Assembly (NCBI GenBank): GCA_903867855.1
Contig: CAIPTA010000064.1
Span: 4,965 to 68,964, forward strand
Direction of reading: 5' to 3'
From: Oligoflexia bacterium
Lineage (GTDB): Bacteria; Bdellovibrionota; UBA1018; CAIPTA01
DNA: 64,000 nucleotides
In this document: piece after piece, positions 1-10,946 of the stretch
Position numbering within the stretch: position 1 is the first letter of the stretch
How the letters are laid out: every line of letters starts with the position of its first letter
Translations under genes and position numbers: made by a program
The notes under the pieces: generated by a model
The model's database searches: none
What the model was told of the DNA's origin: nothing
What the model saw: only the letters and a program-made list of their open reading frames with translations

Positions 1-1271
1 TTTATTGAGGCGCCTTCTGTCCAAATAGCTGCCCGCCTAAGTGTGTTCTGGAGCTCCCTAACATTGCCTGGCCAAGGGTGCTGGAGGATAAGATTTTTTG
101 CGGAAACAGAAAGTTTTTTATGATTGTACCCTGCCTGGTCTGAGTTCTCATTATTGATATGCGTTAGGATATTCTCTACTAATAGGCCCAAGTCTCCCGG
201 GCGTTCTCTCAGGGGGGGGATTTTAAGTACCAATACCGCTAATCGATAAAACAGATCTTCTCGAAAAGCAGATCTAGAGACTTCTTGAATTAAGTCCCTA
301 TGCGTCGCAGAAATAACCCGCACGTCAATCTTAATCGGAAAGCTTGCGCCAACTGGCGTGATTTCCGATTGCTGCAGGACGCGAAGTAATTTTACCTGCG
401 CCGATAGCGGCAGCTCGCCAATTTCGTCCAAGAAGATGGTTCCGCCGGTCGCCGTTTCGAAGTGCCCCTTTCTGTCTGTGGCCGCACCCGTAAATGCTCC
501 CTTTTTGTGACCAAAGAGTTCGGATTCGATCAAGTCTGGGGGGATTGCTCCACAGTTGACCGGGATAAACGGCTTCGACTTTCTTGGACTGGCATCGTGA
601 ATGGCTCGAGCGAATAATTCTTTTCCTGTTCCAGACTCTCCCTCGATAAGCACCGGGGTGCTTCTTGGTGCAACTTTGATAGCTTTATAAATCACGCGCT
701 TCATTACTGGGCTTTTGTGAATAATCTGGGAAAAAGCCGCCCACTGAGGCGCCTTTTCAAGGTTTAGTTCTTGTAAGATCTGATCCGAAGCTTTTACGAA
801 TTCGGGAACATATTCAGCCGTTATATCAAAGGGTACACGCGCGTCGGAGTAGCCTTGTTCTCTAGATGTTTCTATTAATCGAGCTGGGTGCTTGGTCTTA
901 GAAAGCAGTAACCAAACTGCGTGCATCGCGGGAGTTCCTGGGCTCAGGTGAAAATATAGATCACCGAAGTTTCCTTCAGGAGCGTTCTTTTTGAAGTCAG
1001 TTATAACGCGATCGGCGGCTAAAAAAATCTCGGGATGGTGAGTTGGCGATTTGAGGGGAAAGATGTGCCTATCTACATCGATCTCAGCATTTTTCTTTAG
1101 CCACTTAATAAACGGATCTGCATCTTCTTTCGGAAAATTGGATAGAAGGACCAGTTTTCCGAACTTACCTCCGCGAACTCCCTGAAGAATAGGGCCGTCT
1201 CCAGCTTTCGGGTCGCCTTGAGATGCTGCGATGTCGGTTCTTCCTAACCATGCGAACAACGTTTTTTGCAT
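1..1271 (-). CDS. sigma-54-dependent transcriptional activator (bEBP), 3' end cut by window edge; N-terminal RtcR/CARF-like sensor domain instead of a receiver domain
   Basis: Reverse-strand ORF not in the supplied track, open to nt 1, with ATG at 1271-1269 (MQKTLFAWLGRTD...). AAA+ sigma-54 core read directly: Walker A LIEGESGTGKELF, GAFTGA loop (KKGAFTGA, nt 483-500), Walker B GGTIFLDEIGEL, and WPGNVREL near the edge. The N-terminal ~150 aa have no D-box receiver motif. They contain FHLSPGTPAMHAVWLLL (nt ~903-955), which resembles the RtcR CARF motif as I recall it. Confidence 0.85.
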   Translation of the reverse strand, partial: MQKTLFAWLGRTDIAASQGDPKAGDGPILQGVRGGKFGKLVLLSNFPKEDADPFIKWLKKNAEIDVDRHIFPLKSPTHHPEIFLAADRVITDFKKNAPEGNFGDLYFHLSPGTPAMHAVWLLLSKTKHPARLIETSREQGYSDARVPFDITAEYVPEFVKASDQILQELNLEKAPQWAAFSQIIHKSPVMKRVIYKAIKVAPRSTPVLIEGESGTGKELFARAIHDASPRKSKPFIPVNCGAIPPDLIESELFGHKKGAFTGAATDRKGHFETATGGTIFLDEIGELPLSAQVKLLRVLQQSEITPVGASFPIKIDVRVISATHRDLIQEVSRSAFREDLFYRLAVLVLKIPPLRERPGDLGLLVENILTHINNENSDQAGYNHKKLSVSAKNLILQHPWPGNVRELQNTLRRAAIWTEGASI

Positions 1272-1414
1272 TTCCCATGTGTATAATAAAACTTATGTGA
1301 ACACAAATTTATTTATGCCTATTTGCCTCGAGGAAGCCATCTGTTTTTTTCGACATACGAAGGGTCCCCTGAAAAATTAGATAGATACATTGGTTTCTGC
1401 CGGAGATCCGCAGT

Positions 1415-1430
1415 TGGCACATACCTTGAA
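1415..1430 (+). promoter_or_regulatory. sigma-54 (-24/-12) promoter of the downstream cassette
   Basis: TGGCAC-ATACC-TTGA at 1415-1429. GG lies at 1416-1417 and GA at 1428-1429, which is the exact GG-N10-GC spacing with one mismatch (GC->GA). It sits ~50 nt upstream of the ATG at 1481 and divergent from the bEBP gene. Confidence 0.6.
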
Positions 1431-1480
1431 GTATGTATTTCCAAGACAACAAATAAATTTATGAAAAGAAAGCGATCCTT

Positions 1481-1783
1481 ATGAAAACCCAATGCGCCAC
1501 CCAAATGAAGAATGCACACCTAATCTCGGAGAAGGTGACGCTCCGAAATAGACTTTACGACATGCTCATTGAGGTCGATATGGTCGGCCTGCCGAAAGGC
1601 GACATTGATTGCAACGTAACGCTGAGAAGGCTTGCGTTAGATGGGTCTCCTCTTAGCGAAAAGGAGTGTGCCTTCCTTTTGGCTAAGGATGTGCCCTTGG
1701 CTGATTTCGTCGCAGAGCGAGTATGGCGGTTAACGAATCAAGTTACCTCACGCAAGGAACAGCGCCTCGCACTTGCCGGCTGA
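1481..1783 (+). CDS. hypothetical protein (100 aa), first gene of the cassette
   Basis: ORF directly downstream of the sigma-54 promoter, with no recognisable motif. A 7-codon uORF (1461-1484, MKRKRSL) has a stop that overlaps this ATG. Confidence 0.5.
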   Translation: MKTQCATQMKNAHLISEKVTLRNRLYDMLIEVDMVGLPKGDIDCNVTLRRLALDGSPLSEKECAFLLAKDVPLADFVAERVWRLTNQVTSRKEQRLALAG

Positions 1784-1818
1784 GCGATTTTTTAAAATAA
1801 CTTTTAATTGGAGAAAAT

Positions 1819-3060
1819 ATGAAAAATAAAGCGTCTTGTCCAAAATGTTCATTTGAATTTCCTATTGAAGCGGCTCTGGCTGATTCAGTCCGAAAAGATG
1901 TTTCTTTAGAGTTCGATCGCGAACGTCTAGCGATGGAGCAGAAACAGAAACAACGCGAGCAAGAATTTGCTAAGAGCCTTGAGCTCGCGAAACGCGAGAG
2001 TCGTCTTGAGTTTGAAAAGCAGCGAACTGAGTTGCTGGAGCAAGCAAAGCGCCAAGCCGCGCTTGATCAGAGTATGGTCATGCGTGACCAGTCCGCCGAG
2101 CTGGAGCTCATGAAAAATCATTTAGCAAATTACGCTGAAAGAGAAAGCGCATTTTTGAAAGAACGCAATGAGCTCGAGTTTAAGCGTAAATCCATTGATC
2201 TAGAGATCGCCAGGGGCCTAGATAATAAGGCTCAAGAGCTAATTAAGGAAACAGAAGCTCGGCTAGCATCTAGTTTCGAAATAAAACTCAAGGAGCGAGA
2301 GCTTCAAATTGAGCAGCTGATGGGGAAAGTGAAAGAAATGTCACGTACTGCCGGCCTTGGCTCTCAGCAATTACAGGGGGAGTCCCTTGAGGTGATCCTT
2401 GTGGAGGAAATGCAAACAGCTTTTCCCGACGACCTGATTCGCGACGTGAAAAAGGGGGCGAGGGGTGGAGACTATTGCCACATCGTTCGCACTCGATCCA
2501 GTGCTGAAGCTGGGAGTTTGCATATCGAAGCCAAGAATACCAAGGATTGGGGCGGTGACACTTGGATTGCCAAAGCAAAAGAAGATGCTCGGCAACATGG
2601 AGCTGATGTGGCTGTGATCGTTTCGGTCGCTTTGCCCAAAGAGATGATTGGCTTCGGAATGATCGATGGCGTGGTTGTGTGTTCGCCTGCATACGCTAAA
2701 CAAATTGTATCAGTATTGCGAATTAGCGTGCTTCAGCTGCATCGTCAAAAATGGGTGCAGGAAGGAATGAAAGACGCCAAACATGCAGTTTATGAATACT
2801 TCTCTGGCAAGGAATTTCGCCAGCGTTTTGAGCGGCTTGTGGAAGTGCAGTCTGAAATGCGTGATGGGCTTGAACGTGAAAAGCGCTTGGCAATGAAGTC
2901 CTTTGCTCAGAGAGAAAAACTTGTCGATTCGGTAATGGACAACCTTGTCGGGGTGTTTGGCGATCTTCAAGGTTTGATCGGTGAAAAGAACCTTCCAGAC
3001 ATTCCGCTTTTGGCGATCCCTATGGAATCCGAAGAAGAGGAAGAAGAAGTAACGGGCTGA
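1819..3060 (+). CDS. DUF2130-like protein: N-terminal CxxC knuckle, long coiled coil, C-terminal PD-(D/E)xK-like nuclease fold
   Basis: SCPKCSFEF at the N-terminus. E/K/R/Q-rich heptad-like region over ~aa 30-190. GGDYCH...GSLHIEAKNTKDWGGDTWIAKAKED matches the D...ExK pattern I recall for DUF2130. Acidic tail ESEEEEEEV. SD GGAGA lies 7 nt upstream. Confidence 0.7.
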   Translation: MKNKASCPKCSFEFPIEAALADSVRKDVSLEFDRERLAMEQKQKQREQEFAKSLELAKRESRLEFEKQRTELLEQAKRQAALDQSMVMRDQSAELELMKNHLANYAERESAFLKERNELEFKRKSIDLEIARGLDNKAQELIKETEARLASSFEIKLKERELQIEQLMGKVKEMSRTAGLGSQQLQGESLEVILVEEMQTAFPDDLIRDVKKGARGGDYCHIVRTRSSAEAGSLHIEAKNTKDWGGDTWIAKAKEDARQHGADVAVIVSVALPKEMIGFGMIDGVVVCSPAYAKQIVSVLRISVLQLHRQKWVQEGMKDAKHAVYEYFSGKEFRQRFERLVEVQSEMRDGLEREKRLAMKSFAQREKLVDSVMDNLVGVFGDLQGLIGEKNLPDIPLLAIPMESEEEEEEVTG

Positions 3061-3141
3061 TAAAAGCCTCAATTTTCGAGGAATTGCTAACGCCACGGAT
3101 GGCGCATTTTGAACGGATAATATTTTTGAATTGGAGAGAAT

Positions 3142-3633
3142 ATGAGTTTGGCTAAAAAAGAAATCGAGTCACCTGCCCTTGAGCTCGCTGAGGCTTCAGC
3201 TGTGGAAACGGCTCATTGGAATCAAGCTGTTGCGAGGAACCGAGGAGCTGAGTGGCGTAGAAAATTGTTACTCGGCCGCCTGGAGGCTCAGTCGAATCCC
3301 AGCCATATTCGCATATCAAGAATGATGCAAAATTTTACTCAAAAAGATGTGGCACAATCTGTTGCTTTGAGTGTGACCACATATATGGCAATCGAAGCTG
3401 GCAATCGGTTTTGCACAGAAGAAAATGCCAAAAAGATTTGCGAGCTATTAGGAATTCCCATGGAAGGCGGCATGGTGAAATTTAGAAAGAAATATTTGGC
3501 AAGAAAAGTGCACGGCAATCTCCTTGTCGATTCAAAGAGTACTGAGGCAGTGGCTGCGCAAGTGGAGGTTGTTTGGAGCGATTCGAATATTCCAGCTGAT
3601 CAATGGAAAAAACAAAAGGTCTGGTTGATGTAG
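3142..3633 (+). CDS. XRE-family helix-turn-helix protein
   Basis: FTQKDVAQSVALSVTTYMAIEAGNR...AKKICELLGI is a classic HTH_3 pattern. The flanking ~65-aa N-terminal and ~50-aa C-terminal regions are unassigned. Confidence 0.7.
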   Translation: MSLAKKEIESPALELAEASAVETAHWNQAVARNRGAEWRRKLLLGRLEAQSNPSHIRISRMMQNFTQKDVAQSVALSVTTYMAIEAGNRFCTEENAKKICELLGIPMEGGMVKFRKKYLARKVHGNLLVDSKSTEAVAAQVEVVWSDSNIPADQWKKQKVWLM

Positions 3634-3699
3634 GTGTTTTTTTTTAATTGTGCCAACAGAAAAATATTGCGAGAAGAATTATTCAGAAAGGGATGAAAA

Positions 3700-4623
3700 A
3701 TGAAATTTATGAGTCCAGAAACCATTGACGATCTTATCGGGCAGGAGCGGTTAAAGCCGCTTTTGGCTCGATATATCGCAGCAGCAAAGGAGGGCGGGCA
3801 ACCGTTTCCCGATTGTTTGCTAACGGGCCCTTCGGGGGATGGAAAGTCCACTGTGGCAGAAGTGATTTCTCGAGCCATGGGCGGAAATTATCTTCGAATT
3901 CGTTGCTCCTCGAAGCTTCGATTTACGCAGCTGTATGAGGAGGTTACCAAATTAAATTTTGGTGATGTTCTCCATCTCGACGAGGCTCAATCTGGTAGCC
4001 CTCAAGTATTAGAAGCTATTTACGATATCGTTGATAAGAGGATTGTTCCCTTTAGTGATGGAAAGCGAATTGACCCATTTCGGCCAATTTCCATATCCCG
4101 ATTCACGGTCTTAGTTTCTACCAATGAACCGGGAGCCTTAAAGGCCCCCCTACGAAACCGCCTAGTTGATCTTCAGCTCGAGCCCTATGACAGTAAGCAC
4201 ATGCACGATTTACTCATCGCTGGTGGTGCGCAGAGCGGAATTAACTTTTCGCAAGAAGCTGCAGAACTGCTCGTAAAAATTTCTCAGCTCTCACCCCGGA
4301 AGCTGATCAAAATTGTGGGAAGTGGTTTGATGGTGCTCAATCCGGGAGTAGTTGCATTTGAAAAACCTCACGTTGAAGAACTTATGAAGTTTTGGGGAAT
4401 CAATGAGATTGGGCTGGATTCCAATCAGCGAAGATATCTTAAGGCCCTTAAACATTTTGGCGGCCGAGCTCGTTTGATTGCTTTGACTGCATTCAGTGGT
4501 CTTCACCGCTCGGATATCACTGGGGAGATTGAACCTCAGCTGATGCGCATGGGGATCTTGACACGCGAGGAAGCTACTGCAATGCGGATCCTTCTCGAAA
4601 AGCCGGGAGTCTGCTATGGGTGA
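3700..4623 (+). CDS. RuvB-like AAA+ ATPase paralog with C-terminal winged-helix
   Basis: Walker A LLTGPSGDGKSTVA, Walker B VLHLDEAQ, sensor-1 LVSTN and Arg RNRL. The C-terminal GLDSNQRRYLKALKHFGG...EIEPQLMRMGILTR parallels RuvB domain III. No ruvA or ruvC is adjacent. Confidence 0.7.
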   Translation: MKFMSPETIDDLIGQERLKPLLARYIAAAKEGGQPFPDCLLTGPSGDGKSTVAEVISRAMGGNYLRIRCSSKLRFTQLYEEVTKLNFGDVLHLDEAQSGSPQVLEAIYDIVDKRIVPFSDGKRIDPFRPISISRFTVLVSTNEPGALKAPLRNRLVDLQLEPYDSKHMHDLLIAGGAQSGINFSQEAAELLVKISQLSPRKLIKIVGSGLMVLNPGVVAFEKPHVEELMKFWGINEIGLDSNQRRYLKALKHFGGRARLIALTAFSGLHRSDITGEIEPQLMRMGILTREEATAMRILLEKPGVCYG

Positions 4624-5632
4624 GATTTCATTTCCAATAGGACCAAGCCTTTCCGATGCAATTCGGCTGGCACTCCAAGCAAAACTTGCAGTTGGAGTGG
4701 TGGGCCCTCACGGAATTGGTAAAAGTGAATTGCTGGGCCAAGTGGCCGACGATCTTTCACTTGAATATATCGTGAGAGATTTAAGCTTGATGGAGCCAGT
4801 TGATCTTGTGGGGCTTCCAGTAATGAAGGGCAATAGCACAAAGTTTTTGCCCCCTTCTTTTTTACCTACTAGCGGCAGCGGGCTCCTTGTGATGGAGGAA
4901 TTGAATCGGGCACCTCGCCACGTAATTACACCTTGCCTTCAATTACTAACCGCTCGAACACTGAACGATTATAATTTGCCCGCGGATTGGCAGATTGCAG
5001 CCGCATGGAACGAGGGCGAAGAGTACCAAGTTTTTGAGCTTGATCCAGCAATGCGATCCCGATTTGTTATTCTCTATGCCTATGCCGATCCAAAGGAATG
5101 GATAAAGTGGGCGACCAGCCGCGGTGTTTCCAGCACGTTATTAAGCTTCATTGAAAACAGCCCCAAAGTTTTTTCTGATCCGAGCGCCAATCCTCGCGCT
5201 TGGTACAAAGTTTCTAAGCTATTGGAGGCATACGAAAAGAGTGAGTTTGCCAGCAAAGATAGTGTTCTTCTTGCCGCCGTTAGTGGTTGTGTGGGTGTGA
5301 CTTGGGCAAAATCATTTTTGAAATATTATTTCAAGCAAGAGAAGCCCTTGAAGGCCGCCGAAATTCTGACGGAATTTGACCAGCATCGGGCCAGTTTTCA
5401 ATTTTGGATCTCTCGTTGCCGTTTGGATTTGGCCAAAAGCTCCATGAAGAATTTGCAAAACCATCTTGAAAAACAATCGAATTTTGATGAGATGACAAAA
5501 GCAAAGGAACAGAGGGCGAACGTTGCCGCGTTCCTTTCTCTGCTTCCAGCAGACTTTCGTAAAGAATTCTCGCGTTGGGAAAAGAGCCGAGGCTATTCAA
5601 AAGCCAAGACGGGAATAAAAGATGCGATCTGA
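4616..5632 (+). CDS. MoxR-type AAA_5 ATPase
   Basis: Walker A VGPHGIGKSELL. Walker B and the AAA_5 signature LLVMEELNRAPRHVITPCLQLLTARTL. The start overlaps the upstream stop by 8 nt (ATGGGTGA). Confidence 0.8.
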   Translation: MGEISFPIGPSLSDAIRLALQAKLAVGVVGPHGIGKSELLGQVADDLSLEYIVRDLSLMEPVDLVGLPVMKGNSTKFLPPSFLPTSGSGLLVMEELNRAPRHVITPCLQLLTARTLNDYNLPADWQIAAAWNEGEEYQVFELDPAMRSRFVILYAYADPKEWIKWATSRGVSSTLLSFIENSPKVFSDPSANPRAWYKVSKLLEAYEKSEFASKDSVLLAAVSGCVGVTWAKSFLKYYFKQEKPLKAAEILTEFDQHRASFQFWISRCRLDLAKSSMKNLQNHLEKQSNFDEMTKAKEQRANVAAFLSLLPADFRKEFSRWEKSRGYSKAKTGIKDAI

Positions 5633-6794
5633 AAAACCAAAAGGCATTCTAAAGATTGCTCTTCAGCGACACGCAGAAAATTACCCTCTTCATGCCGGTT
5701 TGATCGGGTTAATGACGTGGGTCGAAAATGAACGAATTTCCACGTGCTGCGTTGGATACGATCGGGCCGGCCTTCTTTTTCAGTACAACCCAAAGTTTAC
5801 GGCAGAAATTAAGCTCTCGGAACTCGAGGGTGTGATTCATCATGAAATCAACCACGTGTTACTGGGCCATCTTGATAGCAAGGGGCCTCACGAAAATCCC
5901 ACTGCTATGATGTTGGCGGAGGAGATTACAGTAAATGAATGGGTCGCAGAGCCATTGCCGGGGCGCCCAATTCTCCTAAGTGATTTTCCAAAACTGAAGC
6001 CAAATGAGGACACTCTGACTCGATACGAACTCCTGAAGAAGGAAGATCTCTCATCCTATGAGCATCTTCTCAAAGAGCCCCACTTCCTTGTGCCTCTAGA
6101 GGGGCAAGATGCGGACTTCGCAAGAGCATTATTAAAGTCGGAAATCGCTGTAATTTTATCTGGGCCCCAAAGTGAGGCTCTTAATGATCTGCTAAGGCAA
6201 GTTTGGGGAGATCAATCGGCAGGGCTTAGTAGGCAGGTTTTGCGTGATAAAAAGCGTGGCACTGTGAATTGGATCTCTGTACTACGCCATTTCGTCGGTA
6301 GTTTGAATGCGCCAGCATACTGTGCAACTAGGCCTTCAAGAAGGTTGCCGGAGCTACTGGGCTTGGTTCCTGGCCGCCTAAATCGCCCTGGAAAAATTAG
6401 TTTGATGGCAGTTATCGACACGAGTGGCTCGATAGATGAGTTCGAGCTTGCAGCTATTGCCCGCGAACTAAATTCTTTAAAGAATGTAGCTGAAATGCTG
6501 ATCGTGGAATGCGACGCAGATGTGAAAAGAACATATCGTTTTCAGGGCGGTATCGAGAATGTCCTAGGAGGGGGAGGAACTGATTTTAGGCCAGCCCTTG
6601 AAAAAGAGTTTTTAGGAAAGCATCGCCCCGACCTAGTTGTTTATTTCACGGATGGCTATGGAGCCGCGCCAAAACATGCGCCTGCTGTGCCTGTGGTGTG
6701 GTGCCTCTCGGCGAATGGCCGAAAGCCTGCGACCTGGGGCCGGGTGATTAAGATGGCCAAATTAGTTGGCGACCCTGTGTGGGCGAACATTTAG
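5622..6794 (+). CDS. VWA-domain protein with N-terminal HExxH metallopeptidase-like domain (DUF2201-type)
   Basis: HHEINHVLLGH (HExxH) in the N-terminal half. Intact MIDAS DxSxS (AVIDTSGSI) followed by ...YFTDGYG in the C-terminal half. Overlaps the upstream ATPase gene by 11 nt. Confidence 0.8.
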   Translation: MRSEKPKGILKIALQRHAENYPLHAGLIGLMTWVENERISTCCVGYDRAGLLFQYNPKFTAEIKLSELEGVIHHEINHVLLGHLDSKGPHENPTAMMLAEEITVNEWVAEPLPGRPILLSDFPKLKPNEDTLTRYELLKKEDLSSYEHLLKEPHFLVPLEGQDADFARALLKSEIAVILSGPQSEALNDLLRQVWGDQSAGLSRQVLRDKKRGTVNWISVLRHFVGSLNAPAYCATRPSRRLPELLGLVPGRLNRPGKISLMAVIDTSGSIDEFELAAIARELNSLKNVAEMLIVECDADVKRTYRFQGGIENVLGGGGTDFRPALEKEFLGKHRPDLVVYFTDGYGAAPKHAPAVPVVWCLSANGRKPATWGRVIKMAKLVGDPVWANI

Positions 6795-6912
6795 AAAAAA
6801 AGGCGGCGAAATGAATGCTAAAAAATTGAACATTAAATAAAACAGAATTTAGGAGATGGCAGATGAGCAATAAGACAAAATGAAATTAAATTCCAACTTC
6901 TTGTTCTAGACA

Positions 6913-7506
6913 TTGAAGTTTATTCGTTGCATAAAAGTTTACATCATGGTGGACGCAAAAGTTTTTCAAGGAAAAGATGGAGAAGTGTTTGTCCATATTG
7001 TTACTTTTGGAAAAAAACTTGAAAATTTGCTTTCTGCGATAGAGTTCAAGCGGATTGGCTCAAATTCGAAGACTGTTGAAAATCATTTTGGTGTTGGGCA
7101 TATAGTTATGCTTCATTGTGATTCTCTCTTGTGGGGTATGGCCGAAATTACTGGGGCCTATGAATTCAGCTCTACATTGATTTGGTCGGATAGGACTTAT
7201 CCTCATAGATTTAAAATTGGTAAGATAAAGCTGTTTAGTGATCCCTGTGACCTAGGCTTGGCCAATTTAAAGAGTCGATTGAAAGAGCAATCTGGAATTG
7301 GGTGGGCGTATAAGTATATTTTGTCACCAAGGTTCCTTCCATTTGATCTCGCTAAAGACCTTCAAGCTGCCGCAATGGCTTTGCCAGAAATGCCGATTGA
7401 GGCATTTAATGAAAAAATCGAGATTGAAATTGAAAAAAAGATCTCTCTTAAGAAGCAGAAAAATATGAAGAAGAATGAAAGGCTTAGTCGAAGCTCAGCT
7501 GGGTGA
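6913..7506 (+). CDS. hypothetical protein, possible PUA-like (EVE-type) fold with basic coiled-coil tail
   Basis: GHIVMLHCDSLLWGMAEITGAYEFSSTLIWSDRTYPHRFKIGKIKLF resembles the G-x-(V/I)TG...W.D..YP.R.K(I/V) pattern of EVE/PUA-like domains (recognised from memory only). The track start is TTG at 6913, and ATG at 6946 is an equally plausible start. Confidence 0.45.
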   Translation: MKFIRCIKVYIMVDAKVFQGKDGEVFVHIVTFGKKLENLLSAIEFKRIGSNSKTVENHFGVGHIVMLHCDSLLWGMAEITGAYEFSSTLIWSDRTYPHRFKIGKIKLFSDPCDLGLANLKSRLKEQSGIGWAYKYILSPRFLPFDLAKDLQAAAMALPEMPIEAFNEKIEIEIEKKISLKKQKNMKKNERLSRSSAG

Positions 7507-7734: not shown

Positions 7735-7768
7735 AAAAAAAACCTCAGCCTTTGGCTGGGGTTTTTTT
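7735..7768. terminator. bidirectional rho-independent terminator
   Basis: A8 run (7735-7742), stem CCTCAGCC / GGCTGGGG (7743-7750 / 7754-7761, one G-U pair, 3-nt loop), then a T7 run (7762-7768). It lies between the convergent cassette and the VIT gene. Confidence 0.6.
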
Positions 7769-7825: not shown

Positions 7826-8527
7826 TTAAACAACTGTGCCAAAAAGCGCACCAATTCCCGCCGTAATTCCCATGGCCAGTGCTCCCCAAAATCCCACGCG
7901 GAGGGCGCCTCGCCATGCGCTAGCTCCTCCAACCCGCGCTGCGAGTATTCCCAGTAGTACTAAGAATACTATGGAGGCTGAGGAAACTAGCTCGATGAGA
8001 TATCGAGGTGGAGAGAGAAGAACTAAGAGTAGCGGCAGGGCTGCTCCCGCAGAAAAAGATCCCGCCGAAGCAAAAGCCGCTTGGATGGGGCGAGCGCTCA
8101 AAGTATCGGTGATACCGAGTTCATCTCTGGCGTGACTGCCAAGAGCATCGTGGATCATTAACTGTTCTGCTACTTTTTTGGCGAGCGCTGCTTCGATTCC
8201 TCTCCTAACATAGATCTGAGCGAGCTCTTCTGTTTCGAATTCTGTATTAGAAGCAAGCTCCAGTTTTTCCCTAGCCAAATCTGCTTGCTCCGTATCTGCT
8301 TGGGAGCTTACGGAAACATATTCACCCGAAGCCATCGACATCGCTCCCGCCGTGAGGCCAGCTATGCCAGTGAGTAATATAGTGTGGGGGGAAGAGTGTG
8401 CTGCTGCCACTCCCACAATCAGGCTCGCCGTGGAAACGATGCCATCGTTAGCGCCAAGCACTGCCGCTCGAAGCCAGCCAATTCTTGCAGATCGATGGGC
8501 TTCGGGAAGCATGGTTGAATTTGTCAT
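7826..8527 (-). CDS. VIT1/CCC1-family iron/manganese transporter
   Basis: WLRAAVLGANDGIVSTASLIVGVAAA plus C-terminal TM helices. I prefer the ATG at 8527, which forms an ATGA overlap with the nnrD stop. The track start at 8551 is the alternative. Confidence 0.8.
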   Translation of the reverse strand: MTNSTMLPEAHRSARIGWLRAAVLGANDGIVSTASLIVGVAAAHSSPHTILLTGIAGLTAGAMSMASGEYVSVSSQADTEQADLAREKLELASNTEFETEELAQIYVRRGIEAALAKKVAEQLMIHDALGSHARDELGITDTLSARPIQAAFASAGSFSAGAALPLLLVLLSPPRYLIELVSSASIVFLVLLGILAARVGGASAWRGALRVGFWGALAMGITAGIGALFGTVV

Positions 8528-9444
8528 AGTGTAGATCCGATCGCCTGACAATGCGCAATCGCCTGCGGCAAACGATGAATAATATCCATTGCGATTAATC
8601 CACTTGCTCCGCCCTGAGCTGCTGCTGCAATGTCTCCTGCCATGCCATGAAGGAAAACGCCTGCCGCAGCCGCGGGGAGTGGTTCGAGATCCTGGGCAAC
8701 TAGCGCTGCGATCACGCCGCTTAATACATCTCCAGTGCCGCCACTTGCCATACCTGGATTGCCACTAGTATTGGTGTAGAGCGGACTGTGCGTTGTGCTA
8801 ATCAAAGTATGAAATCCTTTTAGTAAAACCACACAGGCATAATTTTTTACGGCACTCGTGATCGCCTCCACACGGTGCTCCTGTACAAATTCTGTTTTCC
8901 AATCGAGGAGTTGGCCCATTTCTCCTGGATGTGGAGTGAGAATCGTGGCGGCCTTTCTGCTCTGAATGCGCGAGGCACCTCGATCTACTTCTTGCGATAA
9001 GGCAGTGAGAGCGTCAGCATCCACCACAAGGGGAACGGGGCAGCGAGTGATAAATTCACGTACAAAATAGAAAATCTCTTCGCCGATTCCTAGGCCTGGC
9101 CCAAGCACCACCACGCTCGCCTTTTTGGAGAGTGAAAGAGCAGCTTCTAAAGAATCCTTTCCAAATGTACGAGTGCTCGGCGGTACTAATCCCTGCGCCA
9201 TCACTACGGGGGAAATACGAGCCATAACTGAGGCTGTAATACTAGATGGCACCGCGAGGGAAACGAGGCCCGCTCCCGCTCTGCATGCCGCTTCTGCCAC
9301 GAGTATCGGAGCTCCTTCGAACCCACGAGAGCCGGCAAGGGCGAGAACGTGTCCGAATGTTCCCTTATTGATATCGCGGCCATTCAAGCGCTTCGGCAGC
9401 CAATGCTGCACATCCTCGGCTCGTAGAAAAATCGTATTGCCCAT
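8524..9444 (-). CDS. nnrD: ADP-dependent NAD(P)H-hydrate dehydratase
   Basis: KGTFGHVLALAGS..., DADAL and GGTGDVLSGVIAAL are YjeF C-terminal carbohydrate-kinase motifs. Confidence 0.85.
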   Translation of the reverse strand: MGNTIFLRAEDVQHWLPKRLNGRDINKGTFGHVLALAGSRGFEGAPILVAEAACRAGAGLVSLAVPSSITASVMARISPVVMAQGLVPPSTRTFGKDSLEAALSLSKKASVVVLGPGLGIGEEIFYFVREFITRCPVPLVVDADALTALSQEVDRGASRIQSRKAATILTPHPGEMGQLLDWKTEFVQEHRVEAITSAVKNYACVVLLKGFHTLISTTHSPLYTNTSGNPGMASGGTGDVLSGVIAALVAQDLEPLPAAAAGVFLHGMAGDIAAAAQGGASGLIAMDIIHRLPQAIAHCQAIGSTL

Positions 9445-9560
9445 TCTACAGAAACTGCAAGAAAGAGCCCAATCGATTGGTTCGCTATATGCAGGCTAGG
9501 CTTTCAAGTAAAAATAACGAGGCATATTTCCTCCTCCAAGAAACTAAAGGACTCCAAACC

Positions 9561-10946
9561 ATGGCCTACCAAAGTATCAATCCAGCCACAGGCAAAACGC
9601 TGAAAACTTTCGAAGAACTAAGCGATAAGCAGGTGGAGCAGAAAATTGCCGCTGCCGCTGCATGTTTTCAAGACTGGAAAGCGAAATCCTATGCAGAGCG
9701 CGCAGTGGTAGTAAATAAAGTAGCTGCGTTATTGAAAGCCAACCTAGATAAGTTTGCCACGCATGCAACCCAGGAAATGGGAAAATTACGGAAAGAAGCA
9801 CGCGATGAAGTAAGCTTCAGTGCAGAAATTTTGAGTTACTATGCGAAGAACAGTGAAAAATTTTTGGAACCGGTAAAGCTGAATCCAACCCAAGGAGAAG
9901 CGCATATGGAGAGCAGTCCGATTGGCATCATCTTTGGAGTGCAGCCTTGGAATTTTCCTTACTATCAACTAGCGCGCATCGCAGGCCCGCACATCATGGC
10001 CGGAAATACCTTACTAGTGAAACATGCTGCTTGTGTTCCCCAATGCTCTATCGAATTTGAAAAACTATGGATCGAGGCCGGTGCTCCCCAAGGGCTTTAT
10101 ACCAATTTGCTAATTACTCATGAACAGTCGGAAAAAATTGTAGATGATCCACGTATAAAAGGAGTGGCACTTACAGGCAGTGTGGCCGCGGGCCGCACGA
10201 TCTCGGCAAGAGCTGGCAAAAATGTAAAAGTATCTTCGATGGAGCTAGGTGGATCTGATGCCTTCATTGTATTGGAAGATGCTGAGTTAGAGAAAACGGT
10301 AGCATGGGCCGTTTGGGGGCGCATGTTCAATGCTGGCCAAACTTGCTGCGCTTCGAAACGCTTCATCGTGGTGGAAGAAATCGCCGATGCATTTCTCGCA
10401 AAATTTAAAACAGCGCTCGAGGCTCTTGTAGCAGGGGATCCGATGGAAGAGAAAACAACCCATGGACCACTATCGAGTGAAGCTGCGCTTCAACTTTTAC
10501 TCAAGCAGGTGGATATGGCCGTGGCAAACGGCGCAAAAGTAGTGCTCGGTGGCAAGCGCTTAGATCGGGATGGCTCCTATATGCAGGCCACTATCTTAAC
10601 GGATATAAAATCAGATAACCCCGCCTTTCGAGATGAATTTTTTGGTCCCGTTGCAATGTTTTTCCGCGTAAAAGATGAAGCAGAGGCGATCGCCCTTGCG
10701 AATAACTCCGACTTTGGTTTGGGCGGATCTGTGTTCACGAAAGATGTAGAGAGAGGCAAACGAGTTGCGAGTGCGGTTGATACGGGGATGATGTTTATCA
10801 ACAATATCGATTGGGCCGATGCGGAACTGCCCTTTGGTGGGATTAAAAATTCTGGGTATGGACGCGAGCTGGGCAATATGGGTATTCAAGCTTTTGTAAA
10901 TAAAAAACTGATTCGCATACACGATATGGCAGCGCCGTTGGTCTAG
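9561..10946 (+). CDS. NAD(P)+-dependent aldehyde dehydrogenase (succinate-semialdehyde dehydrogenase-like)
   Basis: MAYQSINPATGK..., FPYYQ, MELGGSDA and GQTCCASKRF (catalytic Cys). The start was moved to the ATG at 9561. The track ORF starts at an upstream TTG (9477). Confidence 0.85.
   Translation: MAYQSINPATGKTLKTFEELSDKQVEQKIAAAAACFQDWKAKSYAERAVVVNKVAALLKANLDKFATHATQEMGKLRKEARDEVSFSAEILSYYAKNSEKFLEPVKLNPTQGEAHMESSPIGIIFGVQPWNFPYYQLARIAGPHIMAGNTLLVKHAACVPQCSIEFEKLWIEAGAPQGLYTNLLITHEQSEKIVDDPRIKGVALTGSVAAGRTISARAGKNVKVSSMELGGSDAFIVLEDAELEKTVAWAVWGRMFNAGQTCCASKRFIVVEEIADAFLAKFKTALEALVAGDPMEEKTTHGPLSSEAALQLLLKQVDMAVANGAKVVLGGKRLDRDGSYMQATILTDIKSDNPAFRDEFFGPVAMFFRVKDEAEAIALANNSDFGLGGSVFTKDVERGKRVASAVDTGMMFINNIDWADAELPFGGIKNSGYGRELGNMGIQAFVNKKLIRIHDMAAPLV

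Follow-up and report, generated by a model that had tools for sequence, protein, structure and literature searches.

Several described systems resemble parts of the locus reported here. In the RtcR-rtcBA regulon of E. coli and Salmonella, a regulator with CARF, sigma-54 AAA+ and helix-turn-helix (HTH) domains lies beside a divergent -24/-12 promoter. RtcR-like regulators are also known, from gene neighbourhoods, at the head of restriction-modification (R-M) and defence superoperons, and the relevant passages of the two papers predict their sigma-54-dependent induction upon an infection signal (Makarova 2014, PMC4012209; Bell 2024, PMC11090510). In Pseudomonas, passages of the latter paper describe the coiled-coil nucleases RmuC and ShdA (Shield) as embedded in RtcR-associated Type I R-M loci (PMC11090510). 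A further class, the MoxR-vWA ternary conflict systems, has three components: a MoxR ATPase, a vWA-peptidase fusion protein and an additional NTPase (Kaur 2020, PMC7159879; PMC12839542). Here we analysed a stretch of 64,000 nucleotides (nt) from an Oligoflexia bacterium (contig CAIPTA010000064.1, positions 4,965 to 68,964; hereafter, the window), at the left end of which a CARF-type activator gene stands divergent from a run of seven plus-strand genes. We consider that positions 1 to 7.8 kb are probably the right-hand arm of a bidirectional defence island that depends on sigma-54, has an RtcR-like CARF activator as its regulator and carries mosaic cargo.

For most of the known defence systems of bacteria, expression is thought to be constitutive. 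The comparative evidence presented below points to a CARF sensor that induces a whole defence island transcriptionally through sigma-54. The exchangeable cargo slot of such islands could be mined systematically for new defence genes, and here it highlights a DUF2130 protein and a three-gene module made of a RuvB paralogue, a MoxR-type ATPase and a zincin-VWA protein. The original prediction, which was made from the window alone, had instead taken the seven plus-strand genes as one candidate inducible stress or conflict cassette.

A CARF-type activator of the RtcR_PspF2 family

The gene at the left edge encodes a CARF-type sigma-54 activator of the RtcR_PspF2 family that is unlinked to RtcA and RtcB. 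The window edge cuts this gene and the locus continues to the left of position 1; sequence outside the window was taken from identical metagenome contigs (L001, L002 and a 96-kb contig), and in L001 and L002 the full-length protein has 503 amino acids (aa) and a C-terminal HTH_8 domain. Pfam Sigma54_activat matched the activator (E = 1e-70), and the PADLOC model RtcR_PspF2--CARF_AAA_HTH (PDLC01995) aligned its residues 2-422 with model positions 1-404 of 481 (E = 2.1e-168). The CARF domain comprises approximately aa 1-175 (window ~747-1271), and the AAA+ domain aa 183-349.

The prediction that the N-terminal domain models as CARF held. An AlphaFold (AF2) model of aa 1-180, built on 15 homologues, had a predicted local distance difference test (pLDDT) score of 86 and displayed a six-stranded Rossmann fold with a beta5-beta6 hairpin, the order of strands and helices being that of the CARF topology. 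Its 28 best PDB neighbours in Foldseek were all CARF proteins with a probability of 1.00 (Csm6, Can2, Card1, Cdn1 and ring nucleases), and the homologue alignment revealed a conserved HLSPGTPAM motif and an invariant K125.

The best-scoring NCBIfam model was RtcR (NF038308), at 329.7 bits for the 423 aa in the window versus a cutoff of 650, and the Pfam RtcR N-domain fell below its cutoff (E = 0.057). No RtcA or RtcB domains were detected in the window, in L001/L002 or in the gene list of the 96-kb contig, as the original prediction had proposed for its sensor. With a score under the 650-bit equivalog cutoff and no neighbouring rtcA or rtcB, the protein was rejected as a true RtcR. Of the earlier description as an RtcR-like CARF activator, the CARF/sigma-54/HTH architecture thus stands, and the family is RtcR_PspF2 rather than RtcR itself. 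The locus therefore shares domain architecture and a divergent -24/-12 promoter with the RtcR-rtcBA regulon but differs from it in the regulator family, the sub-cutoff RtcR score and the absence of rtcA and rtcB, and also in having a second putative promoter, at the activator stop codon, that heads a Type I R-M operon.

A near-universal putative promoter at the activator stop codon

Activators of this family were found at 383 or more loci. We retrieved 80 metagenomic loci with an alignment of the CARF domain only and 3 more by exact-protein look-up (83 in total). Genes in the fetched loci were called by a simple longest-ORF (open reading frame) procedure, so the neighbour counts given here and below are approximate.

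To the left of the window, the identical contigs carry on the activator strand, in this order, genes for HsdR (1128 aa), HsdM, HsdS and an AAA_15/AAA_21 ATPase (573 aa). This Type I R-M operon with its AAA_15 ATPase, the conserved partner of the activator, lies outside the window and was missed by the original prediction. Between the activator stop codon and hsdR (L002:4160-4175) is the sequence TGGCAT-TGGCC-GTGCA, in which GG and GC are correctly spaced, and promoter-like sequences also adjoin the activator stop codon in L034 and L036. Among the 56 full-length activators with downstream sequence, the following gene encoded HsdR in 37, the AAA_15 ATPase in 6 and HsdM in 1 (44 in all). A -24/-12 motif with at least 9 of 11 consensus positions was present within 145 nt around the activator stop in 54 of 58 loci (~93%), compared with 1.9% of random 145-nt segments of the same loci, and these motifs mostly begin 0-4 nt past the stop codon.

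Given the downstream gene counts and the near-universal stop-codon motif, we conclude that the conserved target of the activator family is the co-directional R-M/AAA_15 operon. With the promoter only 0-4 nt past the stop codon, the activator-binding site must sit either in the activator coding sequence or 3' of the promoter. The R-M association of the activator, and with it the regulatory scheme, had already been predicted in passages of the literature (PMC4012209; PMC11090510); what is new here is the near-universal putative promoter at the activator stop codon. The locus resembles the RtcR-like and PspF-like R-M and coiled-coil nuclease tandem (CoCoNuT) superoperons of those passages in the regulator family and in its place 5' of co-directional Type I R-M and ancillary defence genes, but has no CoCoNuT or McrBC genes.

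Two further features of these loci were observed. An AAA_15/DUF3696 ATPase gene regularly follows hsdS, or the activator directly, and is often followed by a gene for a ~310-aa partner without a Pfam match (96-kb contig, L035:14274-20356, L038, L045, L060, L077, L083, L091, L098, L108 and L111); the best PADLOC matches of this ATPase were NsnB, PDC-M55A, HEC-03B and AriA. The activator gene itself is interrupted by an IS21-family insertion (rve and IstB) in L035:10645-13293 and carries a frameshift in L034:10711-10734, suggesting occasional inactivation of the regulator.

A recurrent, putative divergent promoter with an exchangeable cargo slot

The -24/-12 promoter-like site proposed ahead of the plus-strand run is present. 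The site is on the strand opposite to the activator gene, 144 nt away from the activator start codon on its upstream side and 51 nt ahead of the first plus-strand ORF, and its sequence (TGGCAC-ATACC-TTGAA) matches 10 of the 11 specified consensus positions. In the region that begins 134 nt and ends 214 nt upstream of the activator, the divergent strand carried a motif with at least 9 of 11 positions in 23 of 74 loci against a background of 6%, and one with at least 10 of 11 in 19 of 74 against 2.4%. The canonical sites in relatives occupy the same relative position as the site in the window, and no comparable upstream enrichment was seen on the activator's own strand in these 74 loci. Judged by its motif and placement, the divergent promoter is a recurrent feature of the activator family. 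The exact core TGGCAC-N5-TTG occurs three times in the window (1415, 24852 and 31516). With up to one mismatch it occurs 28 times, many of them inside genes, where 14.6 +/- 3.7 would be expected, an excess that hints that the host uses sigma-54 promoters elsewhere.

The genes behind the divergent promoter vary from locus to locus. DUF2130 recurs there, alone in L038/L039 and L097, and in L034 ahead of genes for an OLD-TOPRIM ATPase and a UvrD helicase (Gabija-like). Other cargo includes a DrmD-like HEPN-SNF2 helicase with an MkoA-like helicase (L042), Druantia DruE (L063 and L106) and DUF1848 (L037). A protein of the ARPP-1 family (PF20208, E down to 1e-100) is encoded behind the promoter in five loci, as the first gene in four of them (L042:8768-9775, L043:696-1691, L052:232-1314 and L080:877-1878) and as the second in L106:8238-9197. 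As its content varies and includes defence genes, we consider the divergent slot to be a cargo site for defence genes. An inducible conflict system is thus a reasonable reading of the run in the window, supported mainly by the place of that run in this slot, although the single seven-gene unit in which the original prediction cast it was not upheld. The recurrent divergent promoter with its exchangeable cargo slot is new here: neither it nor the cargo of the window is mentioned in the relevant passages of the two papers on RtcR-like regulators, and 'DUF2130' is absent from the PMC11090510 text.

The cargo is a mosaic of four parts

By gene content, the cargo is a mosaic of four parts, namely the orphan ORF with DUF2130, the XRE HTH gene, the three-gene module and the EVE gene. 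We draw this from the finding that module loci and activator loci elsewhere share none of these genes and that the module has no fourth conserved gene. Within 10 kb of the 26 other module loci, which have the RuvB-like/AAA_5 core and mostly also the VWA gene, there was no homologue of the activator, the orphan, DUF2130, the HTH protein or the EVE-like protein; the module was absent from all 83 activator loci; and all-against-all clustering of the module loci yielded no fourth conserved gene. Apart from the identical copies L001 and L002, none of the 26 module loci and 83 activator loci had the combination of DUF2130, RuvB-like, AAA_5 and VWA genes beside a CARF activator. The seven-gene cassette therefore fails as a unit, its homologues not being syntenic elsewhere, an outcome that had been named beforehand as refuting it.

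The first part begins with a putative orphan gene, an ORF called as 67 aa by one pipeline, for which no relatives were found, not even among the short ORFs that open other divergent operons. The neighbouring protein is a clear DUF2130 member (PF09903; 161.7 bits versus a gathering cutoff of 26.7, E = 3e-47). Its CxxC motif, E188, D218 and E237-x-K239 are invariant among four sequences with 27-35% identity, and the alignment satisfies the PD-(D/E)xK catalytic pattern (E...D...ExK) at the residue level. Like RmuC and ShdA, it has a PD-(D/E)xK-type domain that comes after a long coiled coil and is encoded in the same kind of locus; unlike them, it has an N-terminal CxxC motif in place of a transmembrane helix, and the ShdA and RmuC models of PADLOC did not match it. 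We predict, from the analogy to RmuC and ShdA of comparable loci (PMC11090510), that DUF2130 is a coiled-coil nuclease. In PADLOC-DB v2, no matches were obtained for the orphan, DUF2130, AAA_5, VWA or EVE-like proteins, and the HTH protein and the RuvB paralogue had weak generic matches only.

The EVE domain of the last gene was recognised through its family profile only, given that direct searches and a single-sequence model yielded nothing: the protein alone had no Pfam match even at E <= 10, a direct sequence search of PDB was also empty, and a single-sequence AF2 model was unusable (pLDDT 40). The family comprises 28 homologue clusters among 1.84 billion representatives, and its profile matched PH1033 (1wmm/2hd9; E = 6.6e-8) and MJECL36 (2p5d; E = 1.2e-5), while Pfam EVE (PF01878) was matched by 5 of 29 family members. 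An alternative TTG start at 6913 would give a protein of 197 aa. The EVE protein is predicted to read modified bases, and its gene probably has its own promoter. Two relatives, P0167 (344 aa) and P0170 (283 aa), are extended at the C-terminus by a segment that shows a D...E-x-(N/K)-like pattern ('IDVIW ... AFEVENTT'), which suggests fusion to a restriction-endonuclease-like domain of the kind that modification-dependent restriction enzymes have.

A three-gene module of RuvB paralogue, MoxR ATPase and zincin-VWA protein

The module genes overlap by 8 and 11 nt in the window, and catalytic residues are kept in all three enzymes. The family profile of the RuvB paralogue matched solved RuvB chains in PDB over their full length (E = 1e-66). 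Against TIGR00635 and NF000868 the protein scored 101 and 118 bits, where the cutoffs are 299 and 282, and no RuvA or RuvC domain is present in the annotated genes of the first 9.5 kb of the window or in the 96-kb contig. We rejected a true Holliday-junction RuvB on these scores and on the lack of RuvA and RuvC nearby. In the AAA_5 ATPase the Walker A and B motifs are conserved. The HExxH and the intact metal ion-dependent adhesion site (MIDAS) noticed earlier in the VWA protein proved invariant in 28 homologues (HExxH..H, and the MIDAS residues D-T-S-x-S, T and D).

When only the MoxR gene served as the query, 23 loci were found in the genomes of 185,579 species, and in 20 of these the RuvB paralogue was directly upstream and the zincin-VWA gene directly downstream, usually with overlaps. 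Six further metagenomic or viral loci have the same three-gene arrangement. Most often the module is part of an integrative element or a defence island. The module is spread over at least six phyla, its hosts including Planctomycetota, Myxococcota, Acidobacteriota (Blastocatellia), Verrucomicrobiota, Lentisphaerota and a betaproteobacterium. A word-indexed homologue search with the RuvB paralogue returned six matches, and the family was recovered through the VWA and MoxR genes; next to the closest relative of the RuvB paralogue (L004, 52% identity), the upstream gene is unrelated. As far as gene order tells, the module is an autonomous, uncharacterised three-gene unit and a new part of the locus.

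Plasmid and phage collections contained only distant MoxR relatives (23-33% identity). The MoxR/VWA(DUF2201) pairs of N4-like and rV5-like phages (phrog_1297 and phrog_1314) have a homologous ATPase (E = 2e-50) and zincin-VWA protein (E = 2e-35), but only at 23-30% identity. Phage records held no specific match to the RuvB paralogue, the matches at 28-32% identity resembling ordinary ruvB.

Among described systems, the MoxR-vWA ternary systems (PMC7159879) are similar to the module in having three tightly linked genes, with MoxR adjoining a peptidase-fused vWA protein with an intact MIDAS and a third component of NTPase type, and in their mobile, patchy phyletic spread. They differ in that the third partner is here a RuvB paralogue rather than VMAP, iSTAND, beta-propeller or FtsH, 'RuvB' being absent from the PMC7159879 text, and in that the zincin lies N-terminal of the vWA domain, an arrangement termed rare there. 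Pfam bpMoxR did not match the module MoxR ATPase, and matched only the RuvB paralogue, below cutoff (E = 0.005). A defence function is the best reading of the module, based on its cargo-slot position and on this similarity of architecture. In the MoxR-vWA type conflict module that we propose, the RuvB paralogue would load onto DNA or sense it, MoxR would act through the MIDAS site to remodel the VWA-zincin protein, and the zincin would serve as a proteolytic effector.

Some individual module loci have features of their own. In a 1.4-Mb contig of a Deltaproteobacteria metagenome-assembled genome, the module is flanked by a cluster like that of a type II cyclic-oligonucleotide-based anti-phage signalling system (CBASS), with two SMODS, SAVED, Prok-JAB and Cap2/ThiF, and by a DUF2357/PDDEXK_7 McrC-like gene (L005:12550-18256). 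In another locus a 2032-aa protein with RNA polymerase beta/beta-prime domains (Rpb2_3, Rpb2_6 and Rpb1_5; L009:80-6178) is encoded ~1.9 kb upstream of the module, with one unannotated gene between them, which suggests a phage or other mobile element. Module genes are split into several ORFs in L031:8997-12305, L020:2566-3579 and L028:9998-10882, reflecting either frameshifts in decaying copies or assembly errors.

Regulation of the island and alternative explanations

As a defence island, the locus would respond to an infection or RNA-damage signal that binds the CARF domain. Candidate signals are a cyclic oligonucleotide or, as with RtcR, RNA that ends in a 2',3'-cyclic phosphate. With its AAA+ ring the activator would then open both sigma-54 promoters, expression of the R-M system and of the cargo would thereby rise, and the plus-strand transcript would read through into the module. 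No strong terminator separates the divergent promoter from the module, and it is from this and the co-orientation of the genes that sigma-54 control of the module and the EVE gene is inferred, as the intergenic gaps could hold promoters.

Several observations weigh against this reading. The -24/-12 site of the window has GG at -24 but GA for GC at -12. A search for an upstream activator site common to the two promoters of the locus identified none, the only candidate being a weak 12-mer with one mismatch. The gaps in the plus-strand run of 81 nt (3060-3142), 66 nt (3633-3700) and 118-151 nt (before the EVE gene) leave room for internal promoters. No PADLOC match was specific to the three-gene module, the commonest neighbours of which are integrases (4-5), excisionases, ParB-like proteins, methyltransferases and helicase/primase genes; and on a viral contig from IMG/VR (L117) the module sits inside the replication region, with a helicase-primase (phrog_62) on one side and a primase (phrog_47) on the other.

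These last two observations are also those expected if the module is a unit for replication, maintenance or host takeover (possibly counter-defence) of phages or other mobile elements that lies beside the activator by chance, the promoter then serving only the orphan and DUF2130. Two module loci (L007 and L009) resemble phages or plasmids, N4-like and rV5-like phages commonly carry distant MoxR/VWA pairs, the module is missing from all 83 activator loci, and the RuvB paralogue is homologous over its full length to a DNA translocase. On the other side, the module of the window is co-oriented in a slot that holds recognised defence genes elsewhere, and no mobile-element gene such as an integrase adjoins it. 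Moreover, some module loci lie between CBASS, McrBC-like and EcoRII systems, and replication genes are inconsistent neighbours, with one primase and two helicases among 141. We regard the mobile-element explanation as unlikely, but as one that deserves to be taken seriously.

The locus could alternatively be an Rtc-like nucleic-acid repair regulon, in which the RtcR-like sensor induces a nuclease and a RuvB-type branch-migration motor for repair under stress and not for immunity, or its MoxR-VWA pair a chaperone or chelatase of the CobST/NorQD/CbbQO type. The activator is homologous to RtcR, its best NCBIfam model, module gene 1 is homologous to RuvB, and MoxR-VWA pairs serve as maturation factors in other settings. 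Against repair stand the absence of RtcA, RtcB, Ro, RuvA and RuvC genes nearby, the activator score far under the RtcR cutoff, and the 56 assessable loci, most of which tie the activator family to R-M and defence genes. A chelatase or chaperone pair was rejected, as no client enzyme gene is nearby and the VWA protein has a conserved HExxH peptidase domain. Overall, this explanation is very improbable.

The least probable explanation is a single integrated machine for defence or repair, hitherto undescribed and made up of all seven plus-strand genes. In spite of the shared strand, short gaps, single upstream sigma-54 promoter, single terminator and complementary predicted activities (nuclease, HTH, two AAA+ ATPases, protease/VWA and EVE reader), the combination is unrepeated in the 26 module and 83 activator loci save in the identical copies L001 and L002, DUF2130 and the module never occur together elsewhere, and L004 differs in the upstream gene.

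We thus favour the bidirectional defence island with mosaic cargo. A bolder joint proposal, which we advance tentatively, is that the module may be an undescribed, self-contained anti-phage or anti-plasmid system, with a DNA-translocating RuvB paralogue as sensor and the zincin-VWA protein, activated by MoxR, as effector, and that RtcR_PspF2 activators may at the same time control a widespread two-promoter, sigma-54-dependent inducible immune regulon that has R-M on one flank and exchangeable cargo on the other.

Layout of the locus

All eight ORFs of the original prediction were recovered at the same coordinates in the ORF map, and its domain calls were borne out, mostly by Pfam, for CARF by PADLOC and the fold model, and for EVE by the family profile. 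The coordinates of these and of the promoter and terminator are given in Table 1.

Table 1 Features at the left end of the window, in window coordinates.
Feature	Position	Strand	Basis
CARF/sigma-54 AAA+/HTH_8 activator, first 423 codons of 503 aa	1..1271	-	RtcR_PspF2 family
Putative sigma-54 type -24/-12 promoter (TGGCAC-ATACC-TTGAA)	1415..1430	+	motif; same position class in relatives
Putative 100-aa orphan ORF	1481..1783	+	ORF call; without relatives
DUF2130 protein: N-terminal CxxC, long coiled coil, C-terminal PD-(D/E)xK-like domain	1819..3060	+	Pfam
XRE-family HTH protein, 163 aa (HTH = aa 56-108)	3142..3633	+	Pfam HTH_3/HTH_19
RuvB paralogue (AAA+ and C-terminal winged helix), module gene 1	3700..4623	+	RuvB_N and RuvB_C
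MoxR-type AAA_5 ATPase, module gene 2	4616..5632	+	Pfam AAA_5
Zincin-like metallopeptidase (DUF2201_N; HExxH..H) fused to VWA, module gene 3	5622..6794	+	DUF2201_N and DUF2201
Divergent EVE-domain (PUA-like) protein, 186 aa	6946..7506	+	family profile versus EVE structures
Bidirectional intrinsic terminator, 15-bp stem with A-run/T-run flanks	7736..7768	both	common to convergent VIT1 gene

The terminator and the AT-rich gap described in the original prediction are both real: the stem scores as a terminator on either strand, and the gap, which follows the module, is the one ahead of the EVE gene. The right border of the island (window 7826-10946) contains no integrase or transposase; the genes there, to the right of the terminator, encode a VIT1 family protein, a carbohydrate kinase (NnrD-like) and an aldehyde dehydrogenase, and are housekeeping-like.

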